A DNA stretch of 45,404 nt from Clostridia bacterium (GTDB lineage: Bacteria > Bacillota > Clostridia > Oscillospirales > CAG-272), in NCBI GenBank assembly GCA_017508465.1, contig JAFVYW010000110.1:1-45404 (forward strand), written 5' to 3'. This document shows, one piece after another, positions 3,401 through 45,404 of the stretch. Positions within the stretch are counted from its first letter, which is position 1; every line of letters starts with the position of its first letter. The notes beneath the pieces were generated by a model. The model made no database searches. It saw only the letters and a program-made list of their open reading frames with translations, and was not told the DNA's origin. The translations under genes and the position numbers were made by a program.

Positions 3401-6400
3401 ATCACCAAGGGCGTTTGCCAAAAGGAGAACTCTCGAGAGCGCCGTGATGAGATCTGCACGCGCGTTGAGCTCGCGGGCGAGAGGCGCATTCAGAGGTTGC
3501 TTCTGCTTCTTTGCCTGACGATAGGAGAGGGAGGCGGATTGTACCTCGCGACGAAGGGATGTGCTCTCTTTTTCGAGCAAGGAAATCTGCGCGGTAGCGC
3601 TCTTGCGATCGGCGCGGGCGCTTCTGTCTGCCTCGCGGGCAAATTGTGCCTCGCTATGCGCGGTATATGCTTCATAGGCGCGATCATCCGCCAATACGCG
3701 ACGAGGTACCTTCGGCGCTTCCTCTTCGGCGCTCTTGCCCTTTGCCTTTTCAGGCTGCTGTGCGGGGGCACTTGCAACAGGAGCGACAACTCGCGCAGGA
3801 GCGGCGCCAGACAGAAGAATTTCGCTACCCATAACCGTAGCGCCCGTAGCAGCAAGTGCCAGAGCGAGGGCATCGGGACCTTCTTCATAGGTAATCATCT
3901 CAATCGGCTTCTCGCCTTCATCCACACGGAAGGTGGGAAGAGTGGGCAGGGTGCCGGTATTGACAACCGTCGATGCAAGATCACGGGAAATTTCAGGGAT
4001 AGCCGACCTCTTTGCCTTCGGCAACAGACGAAGCGTTGTGTTATATGCACGAGCTTGCTTCGTGATTTCATCCATCGCAGATTTCTGTGTTTTCGTCTGC
4101 GCGAGAACACCAGCGAGAATGGCAATTTTGGAAAGCTCGGTAATCCACGCCGAGCGCGCGTTAAGCTCGAGCGCGCAAGCTTCTTCCATCGCGCCCTTGC
4201 TCTTCTTCGCCTTCTGGGTTTCAGAAGAGGTTGCGAGGACAAGCTGGCGTTTCTTATCGCTTTCCTTCTTTAACTGTGCGAGGGTAGCCAGAGCGCTCTT
4301 GCGATTGGATTTCGCGAGGCGATCGGCTTTTTTACGGTATTGGAGTTCGTTGTAGGCATCGAAGGATGAAAGTGCAATTTCATCACGGGATCTTGGTGCT
4401 TCTTCGGGATTTTCTTCGACACGGGGTGCCTCTTGTACCGTTTCAGAAGCAGGAATGGGCGCAGGCGCAACAGGCGCGCGGCCCTGGAGAACGATTTCAC
4501 TTTGCGCGAGTGCGCCTGCACCGGCAAGAGCGACAGCTGCGGCAATACCGTTGTCCTCTCTCTCGGGCGCGGTGGGAATCATCACAAATTCTTCCTCTGT
4601 GACAGGTTCCGCTACTCTGACACGCGCAATTGCGGGAATGGTGCTGGTATTGCGTGTCTCGTCAACAAGGGAGGGAGAAAGCTCACCGACGGTGCGTCTC
4701 TCTTCTTTGGAGAGAGCGCGCGTTGCTTTGTTATATGCCTTGATTTCGACATGCATTTCCTTCTCGGCGGTCCGTTCGGTCTGGGAAAGACCAAGCGCAC
4801 GGGAGAGAAGCATAACGGTAGCAAGCTGTTCGATCAGGGAAGCGCGTTCAGAAAGCTCCTTCGCCACAGCGGGTGATACAGGCTCCTTCTTCTTTTTCGC
4901 ACCGGCAACCTCTGCGCTTGCCTGTGCCACTGCACGGCGCTGTGCTTTGGTTTGCCTCAGGAGATCATCCAGCGTCTTTTTCGCGCTCTTTCTTTCTGCC
5001 TTATCCGCCTTGGCAAGAGAACGGACAAGACGGCGGTCATTGTGCGCATCGTACTGTGTCCAGGCGATCTCGTCGCGGGAAGGCTTGGGTTCTTCCGCCG
5101 TTGGCTCTGCCCCCTCTGCCTTCGGCTCTTCCGCAGGCGCGCTTTCTGCAGGCGCGGCGGTCTGTGCCATAGGTCTTACAGAGGTAATCACGCGCTCTTC
5201 GGCAGGGGCAGCCTGTGCCGCAGAAGCGGCGGCAACGGCTACGGCACTGACAGGAAGCACGGTCGCGGCAGGAAGCATCTCGAAGGGTTCTTCCTCGACT
5301 TCCTCATAGCGGACACGGTTGATGCTGACAGGTGTACCGGTGGTAAGGGTGGTGTTTGCCAGTTGTTCATCCAGACGAGAAACATCCGCGCGGACCTTCT
5401 CGGGCAGGTAAACAATGGCGGTATTGTAGGCGCGGACCTCGCCGTTCATCTCGGTGAGAGCGCTCTTTTCGACCTTTCCGTCGCCAAGGGCGTGGGAGAG
5501 GACGAGAATTCTCGACAGGGTTTCTACGAGAGCGGCGCGCGCATTCAATTCCTCGATGACGGGAGAGGTCATTTCGGACTTCTTCTTTCTTGCGCGCTTC
5601 GTATTCTCTTTGGCTTTGGCAAGCGCGATGCGCTCTGCCTCCGCTTGCTTCTGCAGGACAATCAGCTGCTTCGACGCGCTCTTGCGGTCGATTTTTTCAG
5701 CCTTTCCTGCCGCGCGAGCAACCACTGCCTCGTTATATGCATCGAACTGACAGAGTGCAAGCTCATCACGGGTAGGCGCGGGAGATACCGCCTCCTCCGC
5801 GGTGCCTTCGGGCGCGGTCTGCTCTTCGCTCGCCGCTTGTGCCGGACGCACGGTGGTGACTACGGTCTCATGAGGCGTGCGTTCTTCACTTGCGCGGGAG
5901 AGCGCCTCGGATACCGTAGGTTGTGCCTCCTTGGGTTGCTCCTGCGCTTCCTCGGGCTGTGCTTCTTCCTGCGCCTGTACAGCCTGTGCGGGTGCTGCCG
6001 CAACAGGTGTTTCAGTAGCCTGTTCTTCAACAGTTTCTTGCGTTGTTGTTCTTTCAGAGGATGCTGCGTCAAGGGCTTCCTCAAGGGTAGTCATCTCATC
6101 AGCAAAGCTCTGCTGTTCGGGGGTTAATCCATTGTCGCGGGTGGTAGGGAGGGCGACGGGTACGATGCGGACGCCCTCGGCATTTTCAGCCGCCCCGTCC
6201 GTATCATTGCGAAAATTTACGCTGTCCCCCTCGGTAGGCGCATCTCCGCCCCCATCGGGTGGCGTGGGAAGTTTTGAAAGAATTTTCGCTTTTTTGTCCT
6301 GAAATGCGCCGAGCTTCTTATCTCTCTGCTTTTCAAGGCGCGTTTTCTTTGCGAGAGCGGTCTCGCCTGCAATCGCCTCTTCATAAAGCGAGGTAAGATC

Positions 6401-8338: not shown

Positions 8339-8383
8339 AATGTGATCTCCCATTATATGTATAAATTTTTATTAGCCATCAAA

Positions 8384-11622: not shown

Positions 11623-14600
11623 ATGAAACGAATTTGTCGATTTTCAGCCCTTTTTCTTCTGTTATCGATACTCTTCGTGTCGAGTGCGCTCGCCGTCAGT
11701 AGCACAAATGAGAGTTCGCTTTCCTCCGCGGTCTCTTCCATTCCTGGAGCAAGCCGTAATGCAGAGGATGTGGAAGGCGAAAGCTTCAGCCTGCAGAACC
11801 GTCTGACGCCCGCCATTACGGGAACAGCATTCTCCAAGGGCTCCGTTCCTTCCGCTCTCAATGCCTCCTCTCTGAAATTCGGACATCTGCGCAGCATGAA
11901 ATCTGCCGACGGCAAAAACACCTATGCTGAATGGCGCTTCCACCAGGCCGACGCTACCACCATCAACGGCCGGGAGGATGCTTATATCTCTCTTGGAAAA
12001 CGCTCGTATGATATCACTGAATTTTCTTATCAGGTGCTTGAATTTGACCTGACCACCATGACGACCTTCCCGTCGAACCTGTGGATTTTCTCCGAATGGC
12101 GCGGAAGTGACAGTAGTGGTAAGGAGCGCAAACAATTCGGTTCATACAACGATACGGATGGCCTATGGCACTTCGGTGATAAGACCTACGAAATCAAGCA
12201 GAACGAATGGGTACATATCACGCTGGTGTTCGCCATTCGCCGCAGCGGAACCGACGCCTACAACTTCTCTGAAACCGTAGCGAGAATTTTCATCAATGGT
12301 GAGCTTTACAACGAAATCATTCCATACCCTTCTGCAAATCTTGCGAGTGGTATCGGCATGCGTCAGCATTATATTGGTATCGGCTGGCCGTACGGCAAGG
12401 CGGGCATCCGTACAGGCATGGACGATGATTGCTCCGTCTGTATCGACAATGTTGCCCTGACCACATTCGATCGTTCCACTTACCTCGGAAATCTTGAAGC
12501 GGTCTTTGCCGATGATTTCACCAATCTCGGGGCATTCACAGGTGATGAAATTATTTACTCACCCGCCTACACCTTCCCCTCGGACGCGTTCGCCGTCGCA
12601 ACCGTCACAGATAAGAACGGGAACATAACGCCCTACGCTTCTCTTGAGGCCGCGGTCGCATATGTGGAAAACAATGCTCTCACGGACGCGAAAGTCACTC
12701 TGCTCGCCGACCAATACAATCCGATTGATATCCCTGTCGCGCTTACCCTCGATCTGAATGGTTATACATTGTATGGCGATGCGACAACCTCCGGAAATGC
12801 TATTCTCTCCTCGATTGACGGTAACATCTGGACCTTCTCTGCCGCTACCGTGACTTACACACATATTACAATCTATCAGGCGCCCTTCAGCAATCGCGAT
12901 ACCGCCGTTGGCGATTACCTTCTTGTCAGCGGCGACTCCGTCAGCCTTCCCACACCCGAGGTGTTCGTAAATGCCTCGACTGGCGAGCGTCAGGAACCGA
13001 CAGGCAATTGGCTCGCTTATGATACGCAAGGAAATCTTGTGAGTAATTTTCCAACCACAATTACCGCAAGTCAGCTTGGCAAGAGTTATATCCTTTGCCC
13101 CGAATACCTCTCCTCTTCGGTTGCCTTTACCCTGATAAAAGCAGACGGGACCGTAGAGCAACATGAAACCTTGGACGGACTCTACGCCATTCCGAACGGC
13201 GCTACCGTTATTTTGAGAAAAGACACCCCAGCGTCAAAGTCATTCTATGGTCAGAACTATTACCTCGATCTCAATGGTTATACAGTATACACCCTTGACG
13301 GCGCGAAGGAGGTAATTTTCCGTGGAAAAGGCACTATTTATGTGTATTCCTCGCGCAGCGGGGCGAGAGTGTTCACTGGCTCATATATGAAGAATGGTCA
13401 GACCGATGCTAACGGTAATCCCATTTACACGAACCAGGCTGCATTTATCGTCTCTGATGAAAAAGCTGCATCCGGCACCAGATTCATGCTCGGTTACAGG
13501 AACGCGGACAAAGCAACACCCTATCGCATTGATATGTTCTGTGGCTCATTTTCTCAGCTCGGCGCCATATCAAATGTTTCCGTATACCTGAACAATCTGA
13601 ATATCATTGCGGCCGCTGGTGATAATAAGGGCATTTTCACCACCCGTAACAGTGGCTATACCAATCGCTATTGGCAAATCGACAATTGTGATATACTCAT
13701 CACTAATAGCAAACCACTTACTTCCAATGTCGATGTCGGCAACAATACTGGCACATATGTGTTCAACAACACCAATATCCGAGGCAATGGTTCTCTCTTT
13801 GGTTCGGAAAAAGCCGTTACGGCAGACTGTTCCGTCACCTTCAACAATACCAATGTCTATGGCACACACAGCATCAATGCAGGTGCTGCCTCCTACACAG
13901 ATAGCGCAGGCGTGGTTTATCCCTACACGCGCAAGCTTACAATCACTGGAAAATGCTGCCTTCCTTCTTTCCCCTCCAGTGGTATCTCGCTTCCCGAGGA
14001 CCACATCTTTATTCCCAAGGTCTCCAGCTCCTCGAGTGGTTACTTCGCATATCCCGCTTATGCGCAATATGCAAAATTTGAGACAGGCGAATACTCGACC
14101 ATCGGAAGCTCCTACCAGACAAAAGGCTATGTCGGGCATTTGAATGAGTATAAGGACTCTCTGTTCCAGAGCGTTGCCATTGACACCTCTGTCAATGTCC
14201 TTCTTTACCTGCCGAAGTCCATATCCGTCGAAGGCGTGTATCTCGACGATGTCAATCTTCTGAACCCGACCGCAGCGAAGGTTATCAACGGAGATGATTA
14301 CTTTGTGGTCCGCGTCGCCATTCCTCCGAAAGAGGCTTATCAGGAGCATTCGGTCATCCTTCGATTCAAATCCAGCGATCTCACCATCACCCTGGACGCT
14401 TCCCTCCTGCACTATGCAACAAAGCTTTCCTCCGTGGAAGATACATCAAAAACAGGCACATATTACAAGGACTCCCAGGCATTGATGAAATATGTCCTCT
14501 ATTATATCCGCACCGCCGCTACCTCAATCGGAACGGCTTCCGCATCAGACCTTGCCTCGCTTGATGCCCTCCTTGGTGACTTCACCCTGAGTGCGAGCGA

Positions 14601-15015
14601 TAAAGTACTGACCGAAAGTGTTTATACAACAACATCCGTTACGGGCAAGCTCACCGCCGCAACGCTGAACCTCGACAGTAAGGTCGGCATGGTATTTCAG
14701 GTTGCCGAAGGCTTTATCGGCACAATTCGCGTAGATATGCCCAATGTGCCCTCTGTCGTCAGGACATACACGACAGAGGAGCCCGCAACGAGCACGAGCT
14801 TCATCGTTCTCGCAAATATCCCCGCCTACGCCCTGCGCGAAGATGTCACGGTAACGATTACCCCCTCATCAGGAAGCGCTTCCGTGTTCACCTACAACCT
14901 TGCAACCTATGTCAATGGAACCAAGACCGATATCTCCTATGCCGTTTATGCATATGCCAAGGCAGCGAGCAATTATCGCGACGCGTACCCGACCGCATCC
15001 GTTCTTGATGATTAA
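11623..15015 (+). CDS. Large secreted protein (1130 aa), Asn/Thr/Gly-rich and beta-helix-like; paralog of 32356..35937
   Basis: Signal peptide MKRICRFSALFLLLSILFVSSALA. N-rich repeats include NNLNIIAAAGDN, IDNCDILITNS, FNNTNIRGNG and FNNTNVYG. Blocks shared with the second protein are LDLNGYT, YSSRSGARVF and C-terminal FTYNLATYVNG...AVYAYAKAA. Confidence 0.8.
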   Translation: MKRICRFSALFLLLSILFVSSALAVSSTNESSLSSAVSSIPGASRNAEDVEGESFSLQNRLTPAITGTAFSKGSVPSALNASSLKFGHLRSMKSADGKNTYAEWRFHQADATTINGREDAYISLGKRSYDITEFSYQVLEFDLTTMTTFPSNLWIFSEWRGSDSSGKERKQFGSYNDTDGLWHFGDKTYEIKQNEWVHITLVFAIRRSGTDAYNFSETVARIFINGELYNEIIPYPSANLASGIGMRQHYIGIGWPYGKAGIRTGMDDDCSVCIDNVALTTFDRSTYLGNLEAVFADDFTNLGAFTGDEIIYSPAYTFPSDAFAVATVTDKNGNITPYASLEAAVAYVENNALTDAKVTLLADQYNPIDIPVALTLDLNGYTLYGDATTSGNAILSSIDGNIWTFSAATVTYTHITIYQAPFSNRDTAVGDYLLVSGDSVSLPTPEVFVNASTGERQEPTGNWLAYDTQGNLVSNFPTTITASQLGKSYILCPEYLSSSVAFTLIKADGTVEQHETLDGLYAIPNGATVILRKDTPASKSFYGQNYYLDLNGYTVYTLDGAKEVIFRGKGTIYVYSSRSGARVFTGSYMKNGQTDANGNPIYTNQAAFIVSDEKAASGTRFMLGYRNADKATPYRIDMFCGSFSQLGAISNVSVYLNNLNIIAAAGDNKGIFTTRNSGYTNRYWQIDNCDILITNSKPLTSNVDVGNNTGTYVFNNTNIRGNGSLFGSEKAVTADCSVTFNNTNVYGTHSINAGAASYTDSAGVVYPYTRKLTITGKCCLPSFPSSGISLPEDHIFIPKVSSSSSGYFAYPAYAQYAKFETGEYSTIGSSYQTKGYVGHLNEYKDSLFQSVAIDTSVNVLLYLPKSISVEGVYLDDVNLLNPTAAKVINGDDYFVVRVAIPPKEAYQEHSVILRFKSSDLTITLDASLLHYATKLSSVEDTSKTGTYYKDSQALMKYVLYYIRTAATSIGTASASDLASLDALLGDFTLSASDKVLTESVYTTTSVTGKLTAATLNLDSKVGMVFQVAEGFIGTIRVDMPNVPSVVRTYTTEEPATSTSFIVLANIPAYALREDVTVTITPSSGSASVFTYNLATYVNGTKTDISYAVYAYAKAASNYRDAYPTASVLDD

Positions 15016-32355: not shown

Positions 32356-35300
32356 ATGAAAAAAAGAATTTCCCTTTTGATCTTGTGCGCGTGTTTGCTT
32401 TTGGCACTGGTCGGTGTGAGCGCTTTCGCCGCCGACGAAACCGAAACCTCCGCCACAATTTCAACAGCAGAAGATCTCGCTGCCGCACTCGATGCAGATG
32501 GCGAATACATCCTTGCTGCTGACCTCTCCCTGGATGCCAGCACCGACCTGACCGTCGGGGCAACGAATTTTGTCCTCGATCTTGATGGTCACACAATCAC
32601 CTTCCAAGGTCAGAACACCTTCGTAGTAAACGCAGGCTCGAGCGTCACCTTCAGAAATGGTGATGTCCTCGTTGCGCATTCCTACAAAACAGAAGGCCTT
32701 GAAAAAACATTTGATAATTACTTGCCTGTCATACAAAACACAGATGGTTCTTATGCCATTGGCACAGCAGTCGCCATCGACAAGTCCGTCTTTGCAGAAC
32801 AGGATCGCCTGCAAACGCTCGCAGCACCCGCATTCCTTGCAAACGGTGGTTCTGTAACGCTGGACGGCATTTATCTGGAACGAAATGTCTCGGTATCCAA
32901 CGGTGGTCAACTTCTTGAAGCGCTTGATGGCGGTTCCCTTTCGCTTCTCAACTCTGAACTTTATGTCAGTGCCCCCAGCGAAGCGTGGGCGACCATCGAC
33001 ACCTCCGTTATCAAACTCACCCGTGCCGAGAGCGTAACAAAGCTTGTCATCGAAAACTCCTTCGTGCATGAAGTAATGCAAAACTGTGTCTACAATGGTA
33101 CTTATTATTCCAAAGAAGCACCAACGGGAATCAATTCTTCCACCGGCGCTGTCACTAAAGTAGGATACCACCTCGACATAGACGATTCAGCAAACCTTTG
33201 CACGATAGCAGGTACGACGGAAAACACCGGCGTGAAAATCGATATCAATCAAAGCGATTTTATCTGGACACATCACGGTTTTTATGATCCTATTGCAGCC
33301 AACAACACGGTTTCTTTCAACGACACCCTGACAATGAAGAACTCCCGTGTAAAAGTGAACCAGGCTTCCAACTATCAGTCCGTAGGTTTCCAATTTTTCA
33401 GTGCCGACCTCGTATTTGAAAACTGCTATATGGATATGTCAGACGATATTTTTTATATCGGACGCAGCGGCAGTCGTAAAACAACTACATCTCTCACCTT
33501 GCGCGGATGCTATGTAAAGGGTAGCCATTGTATCCGATACGCAACGGACAAAAATGCAATTTATATTGAAAACTCATATGTACAAGGCGCACTCCAACGC
33601 TGGTACAATTACACTTCCACAACCGAAACCGGCTCTCCGAGTGTAACCATCTCCGGAAAACTTTACACGGCGGCGAAAGTGAACGAGGATGCAGACACAA
33701 CCTCGTATTCAGGCTCCAAAAACTCAACTTTTTGGTTCAATGTCAATAAAACCAACGATACCGACGCAATTGTAACGGTAACAACAACAGACGCTATCCC
33801 CGCCTGGACGCACACCATCGCACATCAGGATGGCTCTTACAGCAACTCGATAAACACCAACACCATCGTTGCCAGCGAAGGCGACACTGTAATTCTCTGG
33901 GCAAACACCAAACTCACGGCAAATGGCAATATCAATCTCGTAACATTCGGAGACGCAATTCAGCTGAATATCACTGGCAACGCGAACCCCACTGTTGTCG
34001 ACGGTACACCTGGCAAGGTTTCCTTCATCATGGCCAACGGCGTAAAGCTCTATTATCTCAACAATACCTCTAACACCGTAGCGACCGTCACCAGCATGTC
34101 GGCAGGCTGGACTCTCGTTCTGCAGGAGGATCAGCATGTTCCTACGGCTTATATCAACACCCCCGACTTCTCTTTTGCCATTGACCTCAATGGATACACG
34201 ATCTATGTCTCCTCTGACACAGAAGATGGCACGAAAAATGCCAACGGTTTGTTTCAAATAAACAATGAAAACCAGCACATGCACCTGTACTCCTCCCGTC
34301 CTGGTGCGCGCATTCTTGGTGGACACACCCACGAGGTGAACAAGGAGGGTGCAACAGTTGAAGCTACCCCAAACTATGCTACCAGGTTATTCAACCAAAG
34401 CGCAGGCAACCTGTCTATTGGCTATGACATCAACGGAAATGTCGCTGGTGAGCGCATTGATCTGGTCGCAGGTCAGATGATGCTTCTTAGCGGAGGCAAC
34501 TTCAAAGCAAACAATGTCGCGTGGTATATTGTTTCTGAAGATAACAACTGCGGATTTATGCTTCGATATAGCGCTAATGACAAATCCTTCCATGTTTCAA
34601 ATTCCGATTTCTACATCAAAAAATATGATGTGGTATTTTTCTACAGAGATTATACGGCAGAAAAATCGGATATCGTCCTGGAAAACTGTAATCTGTATTC
34701 CACAACGACAAGCAAATATCTTTTTGCTCCATACCAGGGCAAAACCATCCCAAAGCAAACCGTGCATCTTATCAATACCAATGTATACAATATGAAGGTG
34801 CATTACAATACAAGCACACATGTTTATGTCGAGGGCGAATGTCACCTTCCCTCTATGGTAAATGACCAGATTGAGCTCGCGCCCGGCTATGGCGCTGTTT
34901 ATCAGGGAAATCAGTCGGTAACTCTCTCTGGCACCTCTTATCCGTCCAATTCCCGTCTGAATATGCCCGAGACGACCGATCTCAACAAGTCCTATTCCTA
35001 CAATACCGTGGTCTCCAGATACAGCGATTATAAAGCGAGCATCTACACCAATGTCACACTCGATACCGCGCTCGACCTTCACCTCTATATTCCGAAGGCG
35101 GACGGCATCGCAAGCGTGCTTGTGGATGGCGCAGACTGCTTCGATGCGGACGCTATCGATACACTGAATGGCAAGGATTACTATGTCGTCACCATCGCCA
35201 GAGCGCCGAAGGAGATGTATGAGACCGCGCTTGTAGAAATTATCTTCAAAGACGGCGAGACTTTAACAAAGTACTACACCCTGGAACACTCCCTTCTCAA

Positions 35301-35937
35301 CTACGCAAGCAATCTTCTCGGCATTGACGAGGAGAAGTATAGCGACACAGCGAAGAATTACATCGTCGACTCGAAGAATGTAATGCGCTATGTACTGAAC
35401 TATGCAAAGGAAACCATCGAACGCTATGGCGAGCTCGATGCAGAAACGCTCCTGGCGGTTCAGGGTAAAATCCAAACCCTCCTTGGCGATTTCGCGCTTA
35501 CCGAAAATGACCTCGTCCTGGAAAATGTCAAGACCGACATCCCGACAGGCACCGGTACGGCGGCAGCATTCGACCTTGACTCGAAGGTTGGCTTCGTCCT
35601 CGGCGTTGCCGATACCTTTACAGGTCATGTCAGCGTCACGATGGGCGATCGTGTTGTAACTGGCGATTTCGTTGCTACCAACACCGACACATCAGCTCCC
35701 GTTATGGCAGGATATGTCATTCTCTACGGCATTTTCGCATACGAGCTCTACACGGAAGAAATCACCATTACCATTACAGGTACCAATGGCGATACCGAAG
35801 TCGAAACCACCTTCACTTACAACCTCGCTACCTATGCAAACAGCGGTGTAAGCGAGGATTTAGGAACTGCGCTTTATGCCTATGCAAAGGTCGCAGACAC
35901 CTATGGTCGCACCTACAAGACCTCTACGATTGACTAA
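32356..35937 (+). CDS. Large secreted protein (1193 aa), beta-helix-like; paralog of 11623..15015
   Basis: Signal peptide MKKRISLLILCACLLLALVGVSAFA with AAGGAG SD. Shared blocks are LDLDGHT/IDLNGYT, YSSRPGARILGG and C-terminal FTYNLATYANSG...ALYAYAKVA. Confidence 0.8.
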   Translation: MKKRISLLILCACLLLALVGVSAFAADETETSATISTAEDLAAALDADGEYILAADLSLDASTDLTVGATNFVLDLDGHTITFQGQNTFVVNAGSSVTFRNGDVLVAHSYKTEGLEKTFDNYLPVIQNTDGSYAIGTAVAIDKSVFAEQDRLQTLAAPAFLANGGSVTLDGIYLERNVSVSNGGQLLEALDGGSLSLLNSELYVSAPSEAWATIDTSVIKLTRAESVTKLVIENSFVHEVMQNCVYNGTYYSKEAPTGINSSTGAVTKVGYHLDIDDSANLCTIAGTTENTGVKIDINQSDFIWTHHGFYDPIAANNTVSFNDTLTMKNSRVKVNQASNYQSVGFQFFSADLVFENCYMDMSDDIFYIGRSGSRKTTTSLTLRGCYVKGSHCIRYATDKNAIYIENSYVQGALQRWYNYTSTTETGSPSVTISGKLYTAAKVNEDADTTSYSGSKNSTFWFNVNKTNDTDAIVTVTTTDAIPAWTHTIAHQDGSYSNSINTNTIVASEGDTVILWANTKLTANGNINLVTFGDAIQLNITGNANPTVVDGTPGKVSFIMANGVKLYYLNNTSNTVATVTSMSAGWTLVLQEDQHVPTAYINTPDFSFAIDLNGYTIYVSSDTEDGTKNANGLFQINNENQHMHLYSSRPGARILGGHTHEVNKEGATVEATPNYATRLFNQSAGNLSIGYDINGNVAGERIDLVAGQMMLLSGGNFKANNVAWYIVSEDNNCGFMLRYSANDKSFHVSNSDFYIKKYDVVFFYRDYTAEKSDIVLENCNLYSTTTSKYLFAPYQGKTIPKQTVHLINTNVYNMKVHYNTSTHVYVEGECHLPSMVNDQIELAPGYGAVYQGNQSVTLSGTSYPSNSRLNMPETTDLNKSYSYNTVVSRYSDYKASIYTNVTLDTALDLHLYIPKADGIASVLVDGADCFDADAIDTLNGKDYYVVTIARAPKEMYETALVEIIFKDGETLTKYYTLEHSLLNYASNLLGIDEEKYSDTAKNYIVDSKNVMRYVLNYAKETIERYGELDAETLLAVQGKIQTLLGDFALTENDLVLENVKTDIPTGTGTAAAFDLDSKVGFVLGVADTFTGHVSVTMGDRVVTGDFVATNTDTSAPVMAGYVILYGIFAYELYTEEITITITGTNGDTEVETTFTYNLATYANSGVSEDLGTALYAYAKVADTYGRTYKTSTID

Positions 35938-35949
35938 TCTGCTAAAGTG

Positions 35950-35978
35950 CAACACTTTTAAGAAGAATAGTATATAAT
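35950..35978 (+). promoter_or_regulatory. Promoter P0 of the small-RNA array (degenerate -35)
   Basis: CAACAC, a 17-nt spacer, then TATAAT (35973-78). The spacer TTTTAAGAAGAATAGTA is homologous to the spacers of the other array promoters. Confidence 0.4.
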
Positions 35979-35984
35979 ACAATG

Positions 35985-36064
35985 GAGTCGACGGAGAAAT
36001 CCGTATAGCGTCGGTGAAATAAACGGCGGAAGAAAATGCCCACCAATTTTGGTGGGCATTTTTG
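35985..36064 (+). ncRNA. Candidate small RNA A1 (type A), ~80 nt
   Basis: Starts ~7 nt after the P0 -10. Hairpin ACGGA-GAAA-UCCGU, then a 31-nt conserved core AUAGCGUCGGUGAAAUAAACGGCGGAAGAAA, then terminator AUGCCCACC-AAUUUU-GGUGGGCAU-UUUU. No credible ORF. Confidence 0.55.
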
Positions 36065-36070
36065 ATTTAT

Positions 36071-36136
36071 AAACCATACATTTTCTCTGCGAGTTTGATA
36101 AAAACTATTGACTTTTCAAGAAAAATAACATACAAT
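36071..36136 (+). promoter_or_regulatory. Array promoter P1 with conserved upstream block
   Basis: AAACCATACATTTTCTCTGCGAGTTTGATAAAAACTA + TTGACT (36108-13), a 17-nt spacer, then TACAAT (36131-36). Confidence 0.6.
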
Positions 36137-36142
36137 ATTATC

Positions 36143-36230
36143 GATCCACGAAGAATATTCGTGTAGCCTTATAGCGTCGGTGAAATAAACGGCGGAAGAA
36201 AATGCCCACCAATTTTGGTGGGCATTTTTG
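36143..36230 (+). ncRNA. Candidate small RNA A2 (type A variant), ~88 nt
   Basis: A different 5' hairpin (CACGAA-GAAUA-UUCGUG, 36147-63) is followed by a 60-nt 3' part (core + terminator) identical to A1. Confidence 0.55.
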
Positions 36231-36237
36231 ATTTATT

Positions 36238-36302
36238 AAACCATACATTTCTCTACAAGTTTAATAAAAGCTATTGACTTTTTTAGAAAAAGAGCATATA
36301 AT
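36238..36302 (+). promoter_or_regulatory. Array promoter P2 with conserved upstream block
   Basis: AAACCATACATTTCTCTACAAGTTTAATAAAAGCTA + TTGACT (36274-79), a 17-nt spacer, then TATAAT (36297-302). Confidence 0.6.
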
Positions 36303-36308
36303 AATGTT

Positions 36309-36432
36309 GATAGTTAGGTGTTACTATACGTTGGAAGTAATCAATGTGTAGACGCACGTATTAAAATGTCGCAGATTAAAGGTATAGGCTACCTAACATA
36401 GAGGGACCGTCGCTCACGGCCCCTCGTTTTTT
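36309..36432 (+). ncRNA. Candidate small RNA C, ~124 nt, unique sequence
   Basis: Long-range helix GUUAGGU (36313-19) / ACCUAAC (36391-97). Terminator GAGGGACCG-UCGCUCA-CGGCCCCUC + GUUUUUU (36401-32). Confidence 0.45.
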
Positions 36433-36493
36433 ATTTTGCATATTATCCGATGTAAAAATGTTGACGTCTTTTTATACTCTTTTTTCCTATTTG

Positions 36494-36558
36494 TTTCTAT
36501 AGATTTCTCTGCAAGTTTGATAAAAGCTATTGACTTTTCAAGAAAAATAACATATAAT
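36494..36558 (+). promoter_or_regulatory. Array promoter P3 with conserved upstream block
   Basis: ...ATAGATTTCTCTGCAAGTTTGATAAAAGCTA + TTGACT (36530-35), a 17-nt spacer, then TATAAT (36553-58). Confidence 0.6.
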
Positions 36559-36564
36559 ACTATC

Positions 36565-36646
36565 GAGTTGACGGAGAAATCCGTATAGCGTCGGTGAAAG
36601 AAACGGCGGAAAAACCACCATATCAATTTGATATGGTGGTTTTTTG
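36565..36646 (+). ncRNA. Candidate small RNA A3 (type A), ~82 nt
   Basis: Same ACGGA-GAAA-UCCGU hairpin and core (2 substitutions) as A1, but an unrelated terminator ACCACCAUAUCA-AUU-UGAUAUGGUGGU-UUUUU. Confidence 0.55.
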
Positions 36647-36725
36647 TTATTTGTTTTTCCCGATTATAAAATGATGTCTCTTTTTGATTGATTTGCTTCC
36701 TATGTTCTCTATATAAATTTAATTA

Positions 36726-36791
36726 TAAACTATACATTTCTCTGCGAATTTGATGAAAGCTATTGACTTTTAAAGAAAAATAGCATATAAT
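36726..36791 (+). promoter_or_regulatory. Array promoter P4 with conserved upstream block
   Basis: TAAACTATACATTTCTCTGCGAATTTGATGAAAGCTA + TTGACT (36763-68), a 17-nt spacer, then TATAAT (36786-91). Confidence 0.6.
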
Positions 36792-36797
36792 ATTGAG

Positions 36798-36884
36798 TGA
36801 GCAGAAGTTTGAACCCTTGTGAGGGGAATGTAACACCTGCGCCCACCAAGGTAACGTTTTTACGTGGACCTTGGTATTTTTTTA
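36798..36884 (+). ncRNA. Candidate structured RNA B1 (type B), ~87 nt
   Basis: Outer helix GCAG (36801-04) / CUGC (36837-40). Inner hairpin CCCU-UGUG-AGGG (36814-25). Terminator ACCAAGGU...ACCUUGGU + U7. Confidence 0.55.
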
Positions 36885-37140
36885 TCTATCATATTGTTTT
36901 TTCAAAATCAAAGACGGAGTTTCCATTCCCGGCAAAGACATTTTTATACCGCGCCCTTCTCTTAATTGCTTAAATCGTTTTGGGTGTTTTGATAAAGGTG
37001 TGTCGTTTCAACAGCAACATTTTGACCTGTATATTTGCCTGTAAATAAGGCGGAAATCGAAGAGCGATGCTGAATTGCTCTGGCATTTTTACTGAAAAAT
37101 TGAGAAAAAAATGCAAAGTTTCTGTCTTTGCATTTCATTA

Positions 37141-37206
37141 TAAACCATACATTTCTCTGCGAGTTTGATGAAAGCTATTGACTTTTTAAGAAAAATAGCG
37201 TATAAT
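37141..37206 (+). promoter_or_regulatory. Array promoter P5 with conserved upstream block
   Basis: TAAACCATACATTTCTCTGCGAGTTTGATGAAAGCTA + TTGACT (37178-83), a 17-nt spacer, then TATAAT (37201-06). Confidence 0.6.
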
Positions 37207-37212
37207 ATTGAA

Positions 37213-37300
37213 CGAGCAGAAGTTTGAACCGTTGTAACGGGAATGTAACACCTGCACCGTCAAGGGGATGCGTTTATCGCGTTACCCTTGACTTTTTTTA
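37213..37300 (+). ncRNA. Candidate structured RNA B2 (type B), ~88 nt
   Basis: Same architecture as B1: GCAG (37216-19) / CUGC (37252-55), inner hairpin CCGU-UGUA-ACGG (37229-40), terminator GUCAAGGG...CCCUUGAC + U7. Confidence 0.55.
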
Positions 37301-37326
37301 CTCTTGATGTTTTTTTCTTAAAATAC

Positions 37327-40512: not shown

Positions 40513-40621
40513 CGGAGGATTTCTTTCTTCCTTTTTGCAAAAAGGAAGCGAAAAAATCTCATAGATATGAAAAAGGAATCGACTCAAAACAGCAGATTCC
40601 CACAACACCATTTTTCCATAG

Positions 40622-40712
40622 CAAAGGGGCTGAGTCATTAAGAATTCAGCATACTTTGACATTGAATAAGAATTTTCACTAAAATGCTGAATTCTTAGTG
40701 CGAAGCGCCTTT
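40622..40712. repeat. Small palindromic element next to the MITE-like repeat
   Basis: 14-bp inverted repeat TAAGAATTCAGCAT (40639-52) / ATGCTGAATTCTTA (40684-97). The outer ends CAAAGGGGCTGAGTC... resemble the terminus of the neighbouring element. Confidence 0.35.
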
Positions 40713-40873
40713 GGGGCTCGCTTCATTTAGGCATAACCGAACGAAAAACCTAAATAAAAAAAGAGAAAACCGTAGGTTTTGACCTTAGTTTCCTCTTAAT
40801 CAGTAAACGACAGAGGCAATTTGATTGTACCTCTGTCGTTTTTCGTTCGGTTATGCCTAAATGAAGCAGCCCC
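40713..40873. repeat. MITE-like palindromic element, copy 1 (~160 bp, ~36-bp terminal inverted repeats)
   Basis: GGGGCTCGCTTCATTTAGGCATAACCGAACGAAAAAC (40713-49) against its complement at 40838-73. Internal hairpins AAAACC-GTA-GGTTTT and AAACGACAGAGG...CCTCTGTCGTTT. A second copy lies at 45270. Confidence 0.7.
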
Positions 40874-40886
40874 TTTGTTGTTTGTT

Positions 40887-42287
40887 TTATTCGTTGCGTA
40901 TCCAATAACGATGGCAATAGGTTTCCCGTAAAAATTCGGATGCAATGACAGGGTTTCTGAGTTTCAATGAGGGGATGCTTGTCCCCTTGGTGGCCGTCGA
41001 CAAAAAGACCTCTTCCCAGCCTTTCGTATTTTTAAAATACACTTTCGCAAGGCTATCGCACTGATAGAATGCACTCGAACCGATTTTGGTAACGCTTTTG
41101 GGAATAGTGATGCTTGTTATGTTTTTACAAACTGCGAACGCACAGTCGTCAATCTCCCTCGTCCTTTCTCCCATGGTAACATTCGTCAGATTCGTGCAAG
41201 AGGCAAATGCACTGCCACCGATTGTGGTGACCGAATCGGGAATGGTGACACTCGTCAGGTTTTCGCAATCGGAAAATGCACTATTACCAATCACTCTGAC
41301 ACCTTGTGGCACAGAAAAATGGCTCTCCTCTTTGCCCTTCGCATAAACCAACAAGGTCTCACCATCGAAAGAATATAAATTGCCGTCAATCGATTTGTAA
41401 CTCCTGTTATCAGCACCCACTTCAATTCTTTGCAGGTTCAGGCAACATTTAAACGCATAGCAGGAAATATTACTGACGCTATCGGGAATGGTGATGCTCT
41501 TAAGGCTCTTACACCACGCAAAAGCCTCATATCCAATGATGGATAATCCCGGAGAAAAAATCACATTTTCCAGTTTTTCACAAGACAAGAACGCATGTGC
41601 TCCCACCTCAGTGACCGAGGAAGGAATCCTGATACTCTTCATACTTTCGCAAAACGCAAACGAAGCCTTACCAATGGATGTAACCGAATCGGGAATGACG
41701 ATACTTTGTAGTTTCTCGCAATGTTCAAATGCACCCTCATCAATCATGACAAGAGATGGAGGGAGTGATATACGCTTTAATTTTGGACAGCGATAGAACA
41801 TTCTTTTTCCAATTATAGTGATCGACTTTCCAACTACCACATTCGTAAGTTTGTTACATAGAGCAAACGCATTTTTCCCAAGACTTGTAACGCTATCGGG
41901 AATTGTTATGTCCACCAGGTCTTCACAAGACGAAAAAGCATACTCGCAGATTTCAACAACAGAATCCGGTATGACAACAGCAGCGAGGTGCACGCAATCC
42001 GCAAACGCACACCTACCAATCTTAGTGACACTATTTGGAATCGTAACACTTCTCAGTTTTCTATTAGGCAGAAGTTCATTAAACCTGAATCCATTCTCGG
42101 CAATTTCAGAGACAATTTTGCCATTATAGGAATAAGGAATATCGATATGAGTAAATTTTCCAGCCTCGCCGATCGATACCGACAGCGTACCGTCCTCCTT
42201 TTCGGAATACAAAAGAAAATCCGTCGCATCTTCTCTATAAGATTTATACTCCAGTACTTCGGCATCCATTCTCTTCTCCTCCATCAT
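40887..42287 (-). CDS. BspA-type leucine-rich-repeat (LRR_5) protein, no signal peptide
   Basis: More than 12 repeats of the pattern IPDSVTxIGxxAFxxCxxLxxIxI. The start overlaps the upstream stop (ATGA). Confidence 0.8.
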   Translation of the reverse strand: MMEEKRMDAEVLEYKSYREDATDFLLYSEKEDGTLSVSIGEAGKFTHIDIPYSYNGKIVSEIAENGFRFNELLPNRKLRSVTIPNSVTKIGRCAFADCVHLAAVVIPDSVVEICEYAFSSCEDLVDITIPDSVTSLGKNAFALCNKLTNVVVGKSITIIGKRMFYRCPKLKRISLPPSLVMIDEGAFEHCEKLQSIVIPDSVTSIGKASFAFCESMKSIRIPSSVTEVGAHAFLSCEKLENVIFSPGLSIIGYEAFAWCKSLKSITIPDSVSNISCYAFKCCLNLQRIEVGADNRSYKSIDGNLYSFDGETLLVYAKGKEESHFSVPQGVRVIGNSAFSDCENLTSVTIPDSVTTIGGSAFASCTNLTNVTMGERTREIDDCAFAVCKNITSITIPKSVTKIGSSAFYQCDSLAKVYFKNTKGWEEVFLSTATKGTSIPSLKLRNPVIASEFLRETYCHRYWIRNE

Positions 42288-44338
42288 TCTCCCCTATCCA
42301 AAAGAAGTAGAATAAAGGTGCCGCCCTGTACCGTTCTTGCACGGAAATGGCGGAAGGTGCCACTGTCGGTGTCGTACCAATCGGAGAAGGGTACACGACG
42401 AGGGCTTTCCTCGAGGAAGCGGACAATGGGAGAAAGGAGGGCTTCTCTCTTCTGGTTATCATCGGTCAGGACGCAGGACCAGACAATCCAGTCGCTCTTC
42501 GTGTAAATCGCACGCGTATCAAGGGGCGTGCCGAAGGCGTTGCATTTTTCGATATAGGTATCGATTTCTCTTTCAAAAATCGAATGGTCGAACAGGTCAA
42601 GATGATAAATCTTGTCAAACGCAAAATTGTATTTCAGGCTGAATGTGCTGTCATCACTGTCCCAGGTGAGTGGTAAATGTGAATATTTGTTTGCAAATTT
42701 CGTTATTTCTGCCGCAAACTCTTCCGCAATCGTGCGATAGTTTTTCTCGCTATCTCTGTCTCCTGCAAGACCAATCATCCTCGCATATGCGCCGATACCG
42801 ACCGTCGCCTTGATGGCGAGGTTGATATTGTTTTTGAGGTGTCCTGCGAAGTCATCGGTGCAAAGCTGCTCTTCGGGATACAGACCATATTTCACAAGGT
42901 ATTCCACCCACTTCGAGCAGAGGTCGAGATTTTCCTCAAAGAAGGAAACATTTCCTTCGCACTCGCTCACGCCGAGGAACATCACAAGCATATTTGCGCA
43001 TTCCTCAACAGGCATCTGGGAGTCGAAACGATAGATATCCATTGTAGCGGGAAGCGCGTAATAGGGCAGGTGTGTTGTGGCGATGCCGCGCTTGCCATCG
43101 TGCCAGATTGCCGTTTTCATATTGCCCGTGTACTTGTCCTCGCTGTCGCGCACCAGGCCATACACCTGACCGCAACAAGCAGGATATGTGCCCGCATCAT
43201 GAGGGGCAAAATCATATTTCTAGATAGGCATTCTCGCGAATTTCAGAATCGGGCGCATCATGCCCTTCACAAGTTCTACATTCGCATAGAGATAGAGCGG
43301 GATGGAAGGGTAAGAAACATCCACCGTCGCGATACAACCGTTGGAGCCGTTTTCTTTGGAGAGGAAGAGGACATTTCCCTCGCGGTCGCGCACAAGCTTA
43401 TGACCTGCGATGCTCTGACGAAGGGATGCATAAAGAATGGGCAGGTAGCTTTCGGGCAAGCCCTTTGCGTCTGCGCGAAGTTTTTCATCAAAGGCGTTAA
43501 GCTTTCCGTAAATCTCGCCCTTCTTCGCCATAGCCATTCCGAGACATTCTGCCATGGTATACTTCTCGAGCATATATCCCTTGCGATAATCGCCATAGTA
43601 GTCAATCGCTATGGTATCGTCATAGCCGACAAGCACCGTTCCTTCTCTGCCTTTTACAAACGCGCCGACATAGCGGTTGGCCTCCTTCGCCTTGAAGTTA
43701 TGCGCACCACTCGCAAGGTAGGCGAACAGTTCATGCTCGTCAAGCAGGAACGCCGTCTCGCCCGCTACATGGAAATAGCCCCAGTCAGCGCCGATCAGGT
43801 CATTGGTATTGGAAAGGGGATGCTGACGGCAAAGACCGAAGAACGCGCTTTCCATCGAAGAAAGGGGCATTACACCACCGATGGTAGTCGCATTGACGCT
43901 ATCGGGAATGTTGTTGTAGCAGTTGTCTGCACCAAGGAAGAGGGAAAACTCCACCTCTCTTCCCTCGCCACCTTCTACCTTATAATCAAGATAGCAGACA
44001 GGCAAGCCGAGAACATCCAGGTCATCAGGACACAGGGGTGAAACAAACGAAACCGACAAGGTAAGTCCATCAAGGTCGAAGGTGTAATCTGTCGAGAACG
44101 CGCCGACAGACACATCGGTCTGCTTCGCCACCTTTACGCCGAAGGGCAGAAATCTCTTGCCCTCGCCAAGAAAATGATATGTCACACCATCCACACGGAC
44201 AAAGCCGAGGACGGTCTTTTTTTCGCCAAACCAGCTCTCCACACTTCCCTCGTTCAGCACATCGCAGGGCGACCAGAGAGAAAAGTTCGGATCTTTTACA
44301 AAAAGAGGATAAGAAGGAAGAATTCGTTTCATAATCAT
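42284..44338 (-). pseudogene. Glutaminase-like protein (DUF5127/DUF4965/DUF1793 family) interrupted by one in-frame TAG at 43220-43222
   Basis: ORFs 43220..44338 and 42284..43165 are in the same frame. The 18 codons between them read KYDFAPHDAGTYPACCGQ, continuous with both halves. N-terminus is LPSYPLFVKDPNFSLWS. Confidence 0.65.
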
Positions 44339-44413
44339 TACCTCGTAAATTTTATTTTAACTTCATTATATCTTATAGAATTGGGGTTGTCAAGAAGTAT
44401 CGCCAAGAAAATG

Positions 44414-44875
44414 TCAACAATCTAACAATTCAAAAGTGTTTATAATTCTTTTGTTGTTTCTTCTGGCGATCTGAATGGATTTATATGCGCCACCAAAATT
44501 ATGGGACACATAAGCAATAATCACATCCGCATTTTTCATCATCCATTCATTTCGTTTCAAAATAGCAAACCTTGGTGGAACATGTTCAATAGGGGGATAA
44601 AGAGAAGCGTCACACAATTTGTGCTTCAACATATCCCTTATTTTTTCTTGTTCGTTAAAATTCATATATGGCGTTACATAAACAACTTCAGCACAATATT
44701 CATTCTTCATCTCCCTGCATGCAGATAAAGCAATTCTATCAAAATCCCCATACCCACCAAGATAAAATGTCAAAACTTCATCAGGTCTGACGAGAGTTCT
44801 GATACTCTCTTTTATGATTTGTTTTACTTTCTCGCATGAAGGAACAGAAGCATGGCCTGCAAATGCAATTATCAT
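44414..44875 (-). CDS. YpsA/DUF1273-like SLOG-family protein
   Basis: Start at MIIAFAGHA (AAGGGG SD). LGGYGDFDRIALSAC, VVYVTPY..NEQEK, DASLYPP and NADVIIAYV are collinear with remembered B. subtilis YpsA blocks (ISGQLGVELWAAEAA, VAVITPFYEQEKNW, YEASLTHRPY, SDGLLLLYD). Confidence 0.55.
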   Translation of the reverse strand: MIIAFAGHASVPSCEKVKQIIKESIRTLVRPDEVLTFYLGGYGDFDRIALSACREMKNEYCAEVVYVTPYMNFNEQEKIRDMLKHKLCDASLYPPIEHVPPRFAILKRNEWMMKNADVIIAYVSHNFGGAYKSIQIARRNNKRIINTFELLDC

Positions 44876-44917
44876 ATAACACCCCTTGTTTTCGTGGAAT
44901 ACCATGATTTTGACAAT

Positions 44918-44946
44918 ATTATAACACTATGAAAAATGATTGTCAA
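44918..44946 (-). promoter_or_regulatory. Consensus SigA promoter for the SLOG gene
   Basis: The minus strand reads TTGACA (44946-41), an exact 17-nt spacer, then TATAAT (44923-18). Confidence 0.6.
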
Positions 44947-44949
44947 TAT

Positions 44950-45008
44950 CGTGGAGTTCCACGAGATAAAAAATTCTCTTTGCCGTATAATAATTGTGGA
45001 ATTCCACA
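44950..45008 (+). promoter_or_regulatory. HTH-gene promoter region with two palindromic operators
   Basis: CGTGGA-GT-TCCACG (44950-63) and the perfect palindrome TGTGGAATTCCACA (44995-45008) bracket a TATAAT at 44986-91. A third half-matching site GTGGAATACCAT lies at 44894-905. Confidence 0.55.
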
Positions 45009-45025
45009 AAAACGGAGGGGAGACT

Positions 45026-45262
45026 ATGAATTTAAACGAAGCCATTATCAAACGCATTGAAGAAATTTGCGAAGAGCAAAACAGCAATGTTTGCGACATC
45101 GCTCTGCGCGGTGGCATGTCTCCGTCGGCAATTTATGACCTTTTCAAAGGAAGAACAAAATGCTCTAAAGTCATTACCGTAAAACGCTTTTGCGAAGGTG
45201 CGGGCATCACCTTGTCTGAATTTTTCGACAGAGATTATTTTGACACAATAGAAGATGATTAA
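45026..45262 (+). CDS. XRE-family helix-turn-helix transcriptional regulator (78 aa)
   Basis: Start MNLNEAI with a GGAGGGGAG SD. The CDIALRGGMSPSAIYDLFKGRTKCSKVITVKRFCEGAGITLSEFF layout is typical of Cro/C1 HTH proteins. Confidence 0.7.
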   Translation: MNLNEAIIKRIEEICEEQNSNVCDIALRGGMSPSAIYDLFKGRTKCSKVITVKRFCEGAGITLSEFFDRDYFDTIEDD

Positions 45263-45269
45263 GTATAAA

Positions 45270-45404
45270 AGGGGCTGCTTCATTTAGGCATAACCGAACG
45301 AAAAACGACAGAGGTACAATCAAATTGCCTCTGTCGTTTACAGATTAAGAGGAAACTAAGGTCAAAACCTACGGTTTTCTCTTTTTTTATTTAGGTTTTT
45401 CGTT
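45270..45404. repeat. MITE-like palindromic element, copy 2 (inverted relative to copy 1, truncated by the window end)
   Basis: 135 nt equal the reverse complement of 40739-40873 with one mismatch (ACAGATT vs ACTGATT). Confidence 0.75.

Follow-up and report, generated by a model that had tools for sequence, protein, structure and literature searches.

A candidate family of modular palindromic repeats at terminator positions in uncultured Clostridia

The locus and its two repeat copies

Contig JAFVYW010000110.1 of the Clostridia bacterium assembly GCA_017508465.1 (45,404 nucleotides (nt), analysed at its full length and called here the window) carries, downstream of a DUF554 gene, two nearly identical copies of a palindromic element in inverted orientation. 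Between them lie a BspA-type leucine-rich repeat (LRR) gene, a GtaA-like glutaminase pseudogene, a YpsA-like SLOG gene and a small helix-turn-helix gene of XRE type. A first-pass annotation had suggested that the two copies bracket a composite mobile or recently acquired island. The analysis described here points to another reading, in which the element belongs to a dispersed repeat family that occupies terminator positions, and the DNA between the two copies is resident.

A repeat search of the window found two arms of 137 nt each at 40740-40876 and 45268-45404, 4391 nt apart and 99% complementary, with position 40802 against 45342 as the single mismatch. In copy 1, a perfect 30-nt inner inverted repeat (40720-40749 and 40838-40867) extends to GGGGCTC...AGCCCC at 40713-40749 and 40838-40873 with one bulged C, giving arms of 36 and 37 nt, and two inner hairpins lie at 40763-40795 and 40805-40841. 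Folded as single-stranded DNA, copy 1 reaches -53.3 kcal/mol compared with -17.1 ± 3.1 kcal/mol in shuffled sequences (z -11.7), and folded as RNA it has a z of -14.7. The 24-mer core occurs three times in the window against an expectation of zero. These results bear out the earlier description of near-identical inverted copies with one mismatch, and of copy 1 as a long hairpin with terminal inverted repeats of about 36 bp and two internal hairpins. The extent given for it at that time, 40713-40873, holds for the hairpin but not for the boundaries of the element, since the complete unit runs from 40623 to 40876 and includes a further hairpin module, H1, just outside the hairpin first described.

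Copy 1 is a complete family unit of about 254 nt on the minus strand (40623-40876), matched by the nhmmer family profile from position 2 to 255 at 40875-40624 (E 1e-39), with four of four conserved modules present at 0-1 mismatches. On the minus strand, the modules follow one another in the order 5' terminal module, hairpin 1, hairpin 2 with its T-run, 3' inverted repeat and H1. The 5' terminal module, AAAGGGGCTGCTTCATTTAGGCATAACC (40849-40876, minus strand), contains a 25-mer that both window copies and about 19 metagenome loci share in identical or nearly identical form. Hairpin 1, CGACAGAGG...CCTCTGTCG (40805-40841, minus strand), is terminator-like with a folding energy of -23 kcal/mol, and its structure is kept throughout the family on at least five different stem sequences. 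Hairpin 2, GAGGAAACTAAGGTCAAAACCTACGGTTTTCTC (40754-40795, minus strand), is followed by T7 on the same strand and is conserved in the subfamily b members L024, L028, L029 and L035. The 3' inverted repeat of the inner hairpin, with the one bulged C (40713-40749, minus strand), is the left arm of the 36-bp terminal repeat of the first-pass annotation and corresponds to module A3 with one mismatch. The H1 module (40623-40712, minus strand) is a second hairpin with arms AAAGGCGCTTCGCACTAAGAATTCAG and CTGAATTCTTAATGACTCAGCCCCTTT around a variable AT-rich loop (DNA fold z -5.2). Both of its arms agree with the arm consensus sequences without mismatch; elsewhere, L029, L031 and L034 have both arms with 0-2 mismatches, while L033, L035, L039 and L040 have one arm or a fragment of an arm. 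The H1 loop of the window also holds a near-consensus promoter match on the plus strand, TTGACA-N18-TAAAAT (40656-40685), which is not conserved in other members of the family.

Of the unit, copy 2 (45268-45404, plus strand) has the 5' terminal module, hairpin 1, hairpin 2 and the initial 10 nt of the 3' repeat before it meets the window end at 45404; the profile matches it at 45269-45403 (E 8e-28, profile positions 2-144). Its XRE-proximal end is also present in four independent contigs from other samples (L001-L004), which encode an identical YpsA protein, so that copy 2 is no assembly artefact. These four contigs and the window all terminate within the element, which is the typical assembly behaviour of a repeat. 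Homologues of RNase_T, the gene after XRE in the related genome L012, were followed as a route to the far end of copy 2, and all those retrieved (L018-L022 and L045-L048) have other upstream genes. The profile gave no further match in the rest of the window. Six-frame translation of the 254-nt unit yields no meaningful open reading frame (ORF), and the longest open frame through the element found nothing when used as a protein query.

A dispersed repeat family

The outer 19-mer of the element, GCTTCATTTAGGCATAACC, is found at 22 metagenome loci, 19 of which are clear relatives; the remaining three (L027, L038 and L041) are chance matches within coding sequence and were dropped. Members are recovered by the nhmmer family profile with E-values from 1e-68 to 1e-8. 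A second profile match in L043 (11485-11603, E 2e-4) is weak and resembles ordinary terminators, and it was left out of the count. The upstream flanks of the members are unrelated to each other, with a mean identity of 0.54 that equals the alignment baseline, which contradicts the idea that one locus has been sampled from many strains.

The common build starts with an A-run and GGGGCTGCTTCATTTAGGCATAACC, followed by hairpin 1 with a T-rich tail, hairpin 2 with a T-run, an optional third hairpin and the 5' end again in imperfect, inverted form, CTAAAT[C/G]AAGCnAGCCCC; many copies then add H1, in which AAAGGCGCTTCGCACTAAGAATTCAG and CTGAATTCTTAATGACTCAGCCCCTTT enclose the variable loop. Per unit there are one or two of the hairpins that resemble Rho-independent terminators. 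The 5' end of the unit is near-invariant over 25-28 nt, and the far arm of H1 mirrors it once more. As terminal inverted repeats, the outer ends AAAGGGGCTGCTTCATT and AATGACTCAGCCCCTTT agree at 15 of 17 positions. The family falls into subfamily a, with 75-98% identity (mostly at least 80%), and subfamily b, with 73-91% identity, to which both window copies belong. Among the loci L023-L044 there are short and truncated variants, a tandem arrangement (L026), an internal module duplication (L032), and further module-shuffled or truncated forms (L035 and L040). Hairpin 1 has across the family a stem of 10-15 bp and a folding energy of -14 to -27 kcal/mol, with at least five stem sequences, and lies between an A-tract and a T-rich tail. 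These values come from folding copy by copy, because the MAFFT alignment of 5' module and hairpin 1 on which RNAalifold was run had the hairpins out of register and yielded no usable covariation.

The inner-repeat 24-mer, TTTAGGCATAACCGAACGAAAAAC, has no match in species-representative genomes, JGI metagenomes or viral contigs, and most family members differ at this place. In viral contigs, the paired outer-arm pattern, the 19-mer and the H1 arm also found no match, and the whole unit found nothing among plasmids and phages. A search of Rfam gave nothing at gathering scores, and below threshold just generic long-hairpin (miRNA precursor) matches. As judged by these comparisons, in which no known family was matched at the sequence level, this is probably a previously unlisted family of uncultured gut or rumen Clostridia.

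Position and orientation relative to genes

The element keeps a consistent position relative to coding sequences. Copy 1 begins 10 nt past the LRR stop codon (40887-40889) and copy 2 begins 5 nt past the XRE stop codon (45260-45262). Copy 1 lies in the reading direction of the LRR gene on the minus strand and copy 2 in that of the XRE gene on the plus strand, and each gene reaches the same end first. That the two copies are inverted is therefore explained by two diverging genes, each of which carries the repeat at its 3' end. At 14 of 18 independent metagenome sites, as for both of the window copies, the 5' end has the stop codon of a same-strand ORF no more than about 105 nt upstream, and in 12 of those cases the distance is within 35 nt. 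Counted together, a co-directional stop precedes the element at 16 of 20 sites (one-sided binomial p about 0.006 against 50%, calculated from these counts). At the metagenome loci the family is found as solo copies after housekeeping genes. Hairpin 1 with its A- and T-rich tracts has, by its predicted fold, the look of a Rho-independent terminator.

The same locus in element-free relatives

Three related genomes were found through homologues of the DUF554 protein with 84-87% protein identity; they represent different species with about 78-83% nucleotide identity to the window. A second genome scan with the DUF554 protein as query returned a single relative at 42%, and exact look-up of the window's DUF554 and LRR proteins gave no record. 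Profile and sequence comparison found no copy of the element in L012 (GCA_045612385.1), L013 or L016 (GCA_964499625.1). In L012, prfC-trmB-DUF554 on the plus strand are followed by LRR (minus) and XRE (plus), and between the latter two only a remnant of the GtaA upstream region is left. In L013, DUF554 (plus) is followed by GtaA (minus), two extra genes, YpsA (minus) and XRE (plus), and in L016 by GtaA (minus). All three relatives retain prfC-trmB-DUF554, and the orientation of the genes that follow is in each of them identical to that in the window.

Both sites of the element are empty in L012 and L013, as is site 1 in L016, while at site 2 the element is present in the four same-species contigs; as this comparison spans different species, the gain of the element is undated. 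At site 1, L012 has from the conserved flank CATAGC to the LRR stop codon a 34-nt bidirectional terminator, AAAAGCCCCGATGG-TCTTCG-CCATCGGGGCTTTT, and the window has at the same place the 254 nt AAAGGGGCTGAG ... GCAGCCCCTTT. At site 2, plain terminators are found in L013 (AAAAGGGCACTTGTG...CACAAGTGCCCTTTT) and in L012, and they begin where copy 2 begins, 5 nt past the XRE stop codon. LRR and XRE, the genes at the two edges of the supposed island, are present at this locus in the element-free L012, and the relatives differ in gene content through internal gains and losses without the repeats at their bounds. Judged by this gene order, the 4.4 kb between the copies is ancestral resident DNA with variable gene content, which was not mobilised by the repeats.

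Genes between the copies

The BspA-type LRR gene (40887-42287, minus strand), which reads into copy 1, is assigned by Pfam LRR_5 (E 2e-91) and has an orthologue at the same position in L012. The GtaA-like glutaminase pseudogene (42284-44338, minus strand; Pfam) is divided into two parts, 42284-43165 and 43220-44338, by a change of TGG to TAG at 43220-43222. The YpsA-like SLOG gene (44414-44905, minus strand), with an orthologue in L013, scores 27.9 bits against a YpsA cutoff of 27.7. The helix-turn-helix gene called XRE (45026-45262, plus strand), which reads into copy 2, stays below the threshold for HTH_3 (17.9 bits against 23) and has orthologous DNA in L012 (87% identity) and L013. The gene content first proposed for the supposed island is thus retained, the YpsA assignment just above its threshold and the XRE assignment below that of HTH_3. 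It had also been described as deviant in composition. This applies to LRR, YpsA and XRE, with GC contents of 0.43, 0.36 and 0.40, but not to GtaA (GC 0.50, GC at third codon positions 0.58), whose GC content and codon use are host-like, as in the rest of the window. The low GC content of the three AT-rich genes is common to their orthologues in the relatives.

In L001, which is of the same species and from another sample, the corresponding part of GtaA (1900-2030) retains the TGG codon but has a nonsense change of TAC to TAA about 30 codons upstream. L013 and L016 have an intact gene of 677 amino acids (aa), and L012 has lost it by deletion. GtaA appears to be undergoing ongoing decay in this lineage, because independent nonsense changes are found in two samples of the same species in addition to the deletion in L012. 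Perfect matches to the sigma-70 consensus (12 of 12, TTGACA-17-TATAAT) lie upstream of GtaA (44365-44393, minus strand) and of YpsA (44918-44946, minus strand). The latter overlaps back-to-back with a 10-of-12 match for the divergent helix-turn-helix gene (44910-44937, plus strand), and this compact divergent promoter region probably serves the helix-turn-helix protein as an operator.

Interpretation and alternative explanations

It is probable that the two copies belong to a new family of modular palindromic interspersed repeats, that they serve as terminators for the LRR and XRE genes, and that the DNA between them is ancestral. The element is dispersed at unrelated loci, is absent from the orthologous sites of relatives, is placed at terminator positions in a consistent orientation, and combines conserved ends with variable interiors. 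By analogy, it is a new family of a well-known kind, the same kind as the pneumococcal BOX and SPRITE repeats and the bacterial transposable elements of the miniature inverted-repeat type (MITEs). The unit may have spread by non-autonomous transposition or by copy-and-replace of some form. Copy 1 would now act as the transcription terminator of the LRR gene and copy 2 as that of the XRE gene, and H1 together with the outer stem may stop transcription that arrives from the convergent side. That copies 1 and 2 are so alike might reflect either a recent origin or homogenisation by gene conversion. The unit may be tolerated, or selected, as a bringer of its own terminators which replaces the resident one.

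Several points weigh against this reading. The check for target-site duplications proposed in the first-pass annotation turned out negative, in that no direct repeat flanks any complete unit, with the limits that the ends of the element are uncertain by about 3 nt and that copy 2 is without its far end; the units are bordered by an A-run and by a T-run, which prolong the palindrome and form inverted repeats instead of direct ones. The window encodes no transposase, neither a transposase nor an autonomous element with fitting ends turned up in any scanned collection, including the viral contigs, plasmids and phages, and none of the fetched loci has a pair of ends at the distance of an insertion sequence (IS). 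For the species-representative genomes, the scan used the inner 24-mer, which most members lack, and the copies counted here come from the window and from metagenome contigs. The orientation bias comes from about 20 sites, with p roughly 0.006. Terminator activity is predicted from sequence, and a simple terminator scan with an 8-nt limit on the loop did not flag the hairpins, whose loops are longer.

With neither a target-site duplication nor an autonomous partner found, there is room for a non-duplicating mechanism. In such a case, the element would be a self-propagating terminator cassette, which installs itself exactly at resident Rho-independent terminators, from A-tract to T-tract, without duplicating the target. 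It would depend on a mechanism that recognises hairpins or works on DNA in single-stranded form, as is the case for HUH- or RAYT-like enzymes, and the near-invariant 25-nt end would be the recognition site of the enzyme. If true, this would be a REPIN-like system in Clostridia, but such a cassette is regarded as rather unlikely.

The composite transposon or acquired island, in which the two inverted copies would be the ends of a 4.7-kb mobile unit carrying LRR, GtaA, YpsA and XRE, is very improbable. The flanking repeats are indeed inverted and 99% identical, LRR, YpsA and XRE are AT-richer than their neighbours, and gene content 3' of DUF554 varies among relatives. However, the element-free L012, L013 and L016 carry these genes at the same locus and in the same orientation, including both edge genes in L012, so the comparison of relatives, suggested at the outset for presence or absence of the island, speaks for residence. 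Moreover, the relatives differ by internal deletions and additions with no repeats at their bounds, GtaA has host-like GC content and codon use, the low GC content of the others is shared by orthologues, and the family occurs elsewhere as solo copies after housekeeping genes. As the first-pass annotation had correctly stated, no transposase or integrase is found among the proteins encoded in the window. The synteny of the relatives and the lack of a mobility gene rule out a composite transposon for practical purposes.

The same two copies could also be the arms of an invertible segment, with homologous recombination between them (at least 137 nt each) flipping 40877-45267 in part of the population. 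Long, near-identical arms would in principle suffice for RecA-dependent inversion, but the assembled orientation is that of all the relatives and hence ancestral, the window encodes no site-specific recombinase, and the copies lie at gene 3' ends, where inversion would move whole transcription units without switching a promoter. The available short contigs all break within the element and give no linkage either way, and inversion is considered unlikely. Equally improbable is a non-mobile, conserved cis-acting 3'-UTR (untranslated region) or terminator RNA motif, or a small RNA (sRNA) gene, which is kept at each locus for regulation. This would fit the strong orientation bias with stop codons close by, the preservation of hairpin 1 structure while its sequence varies, the near-invariant 5' module, which would stay single-stranded if transcription ends at hairpin 1, and the near-consensus promoter match in the H1 loop of the window. 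Against it, the element is missing at the orthologous sites of three relatives, copies with 98-99% identity occur at unrelated loci, the truncated, tandem and module-shuffled variants (L026, L032, L035 and L040) are what interspersed repeats typically show, Rfam gave no matching family, and the promoter match is not shared by other H1 loops. Among other candidates, an integron attC site was rejected, as RYYYAAC and GTTRRRY cores are absent from the arms, the copies are inverted and elsewhere follow housekeeping genes, and there is no integrase; REP and IS200/IS605-type end readings were dropped because the defining motifs are lacking.

Comparison with known repeats

The closest analogues of the dispersed family are found in pneumococci. 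In BOX elements the terminal modules form a pair and the inner modules are optional, SPRITE resembles a terminator and shows the strongest enrichment of all the repeats near the 3' ends of coding sequences, and both mirror coding orientation (Croucher et al., 2011, PMC3049150). The present element likewise is a small interspersed repeat of Firmicutes with a predicted long stem-loop, is modular with pairing terminal modules and optional or repeated inner ones, is co-oriented with coding strands and enriched just downstream of coding sequences, and has a terminator-like hairpin with a T-rich tract; in both cases a mobilising enzyme is at most proposed. The element differs in its host lineage, which consists of uncultured Clostridia of ruminant and other metagenomes, in its longer terminal inverted repeats (up to 37 nt perfect in the window copies), and in the extra hairpin module, H1, with a far arm that mirrors the 5' end. 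The pneumococcal BOX, RUP and SPRITE were compared by published description rather than by sequence or profile, and the element is accordingly an analogue, not a shown member.

The classic MITEs for comparison are RUP of S. pneumoniae and, in Neisseria, the Correia elements (CREE) (PMC2649163, PMC10969869, PMC3049150). Like these, the present element falls in the range of 100-300 nt, is non-coding, has terminal inverted repeats and strong hairpins and is dispersed in many intergenic copies, and co-transcription with neighbouring genes and a possible terminator or promoter action are further points of likeness. Correia elements and RUP make TA target-site duplications, and the ends of RUP match an IS630-type element. 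For the present element, in contrast, neither a duplication nor a parent IS was found, and its position is that of a resident terminator rather than a short target motif. The description as MITE-like therefore stands in part: the unit is small (254 nt) and non-coding, has terminal inverted repeats and dispersed copies, and is present or absent at orthologous sites, but it shows no target-site duplication, and the collections scanned yielded no parent transposase. Its modular build and its co-oriented, terminator-like fold downstream of coding sequences agree with BOX and SPRITE, and neither absence or relocation of the block between the copies nor a mobility gene, as would mark a composite transposon or island, was found.

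REPINs and other REP-BIME repeats, described mainly from Proteobacteria, are mobilised by RAYT transposases and have REP arms of 20-40 nt with a conserved GTAG head. The element resembles them in forming hairpin doublets with conserved arms and variable loops, in lying at gene 3' ends, often between convergent genes, and in the lack of target-site duplication. Unlike in REPINs, the GTAG head is absent, and no copy was seen with a RAYT or IS200/IS605-type gene nearby.

The main practical value of the finding lies in assembly and annotation of this lineage, and it does not concern a new kind of system. It explains the breaks of short-read assemblies at these points in the lineage, removes a false mobile-island call, and documents a repeat family for uncultured ruminant-gut Clostridia whose 19-mer and profile can be used for masking and counting. 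The placement at terminator positions makes the family a test case for whether such repeats are tolerated for terminating transcription or actively target terminators.

Other features of the window and its relatives

Six Logan contigs (L006-L011) from six runs, which represent a related strain with 88% nucleotide identity, all stop at one base, 42 nt past the DUF554 stop codon (window position 40554), and this shared stop point suggests a repeat boundary or a strain branch point there too. Directly after DUF554 in L013 (10745-10880) lies a short repeat array, in which each of five short hairpins precedes a copy of the octamer ATTTCATC (…CCGACAAGGTCGG ATTTCATC GCGAAGCG ATTTCATC CACCATCGGTGG ATTTCATC…).

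Farther to the left, the window contains three very large ORFs of 2633 aa (452-8353, minus strand), 1130 aa (11623-15015, plus strand) and 1193 aa (32356-35937, plus strand), and the latter two, which were scanned, have no Pfam domain at E<=1e-5. Between the 1193-aa ORF and prfC lies an AT-rich gap of 1.4 kb (35940-37310, plus strand; GC 0.34) with six tandem units, each consisting of a highly conserved promoter block (…GCTATTGACTTTTnAAGAAAAATAGCATATAAT), a structured RNA of 70-120 nt and a strong terminator. The RNAs are of three types, X with three copies, Y with two and Z with one; they have no match in Rfam, and one conserved 26-mer has none in viral contigs. The equivalent gap in L012 has 360 nt only and no such units, and for this reason the 1193-aa ORF together with the RNA cluster looks like an insertion of about 5 kb. 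The tandem units themselves are possibly an unlisted sRNA gene cluster.

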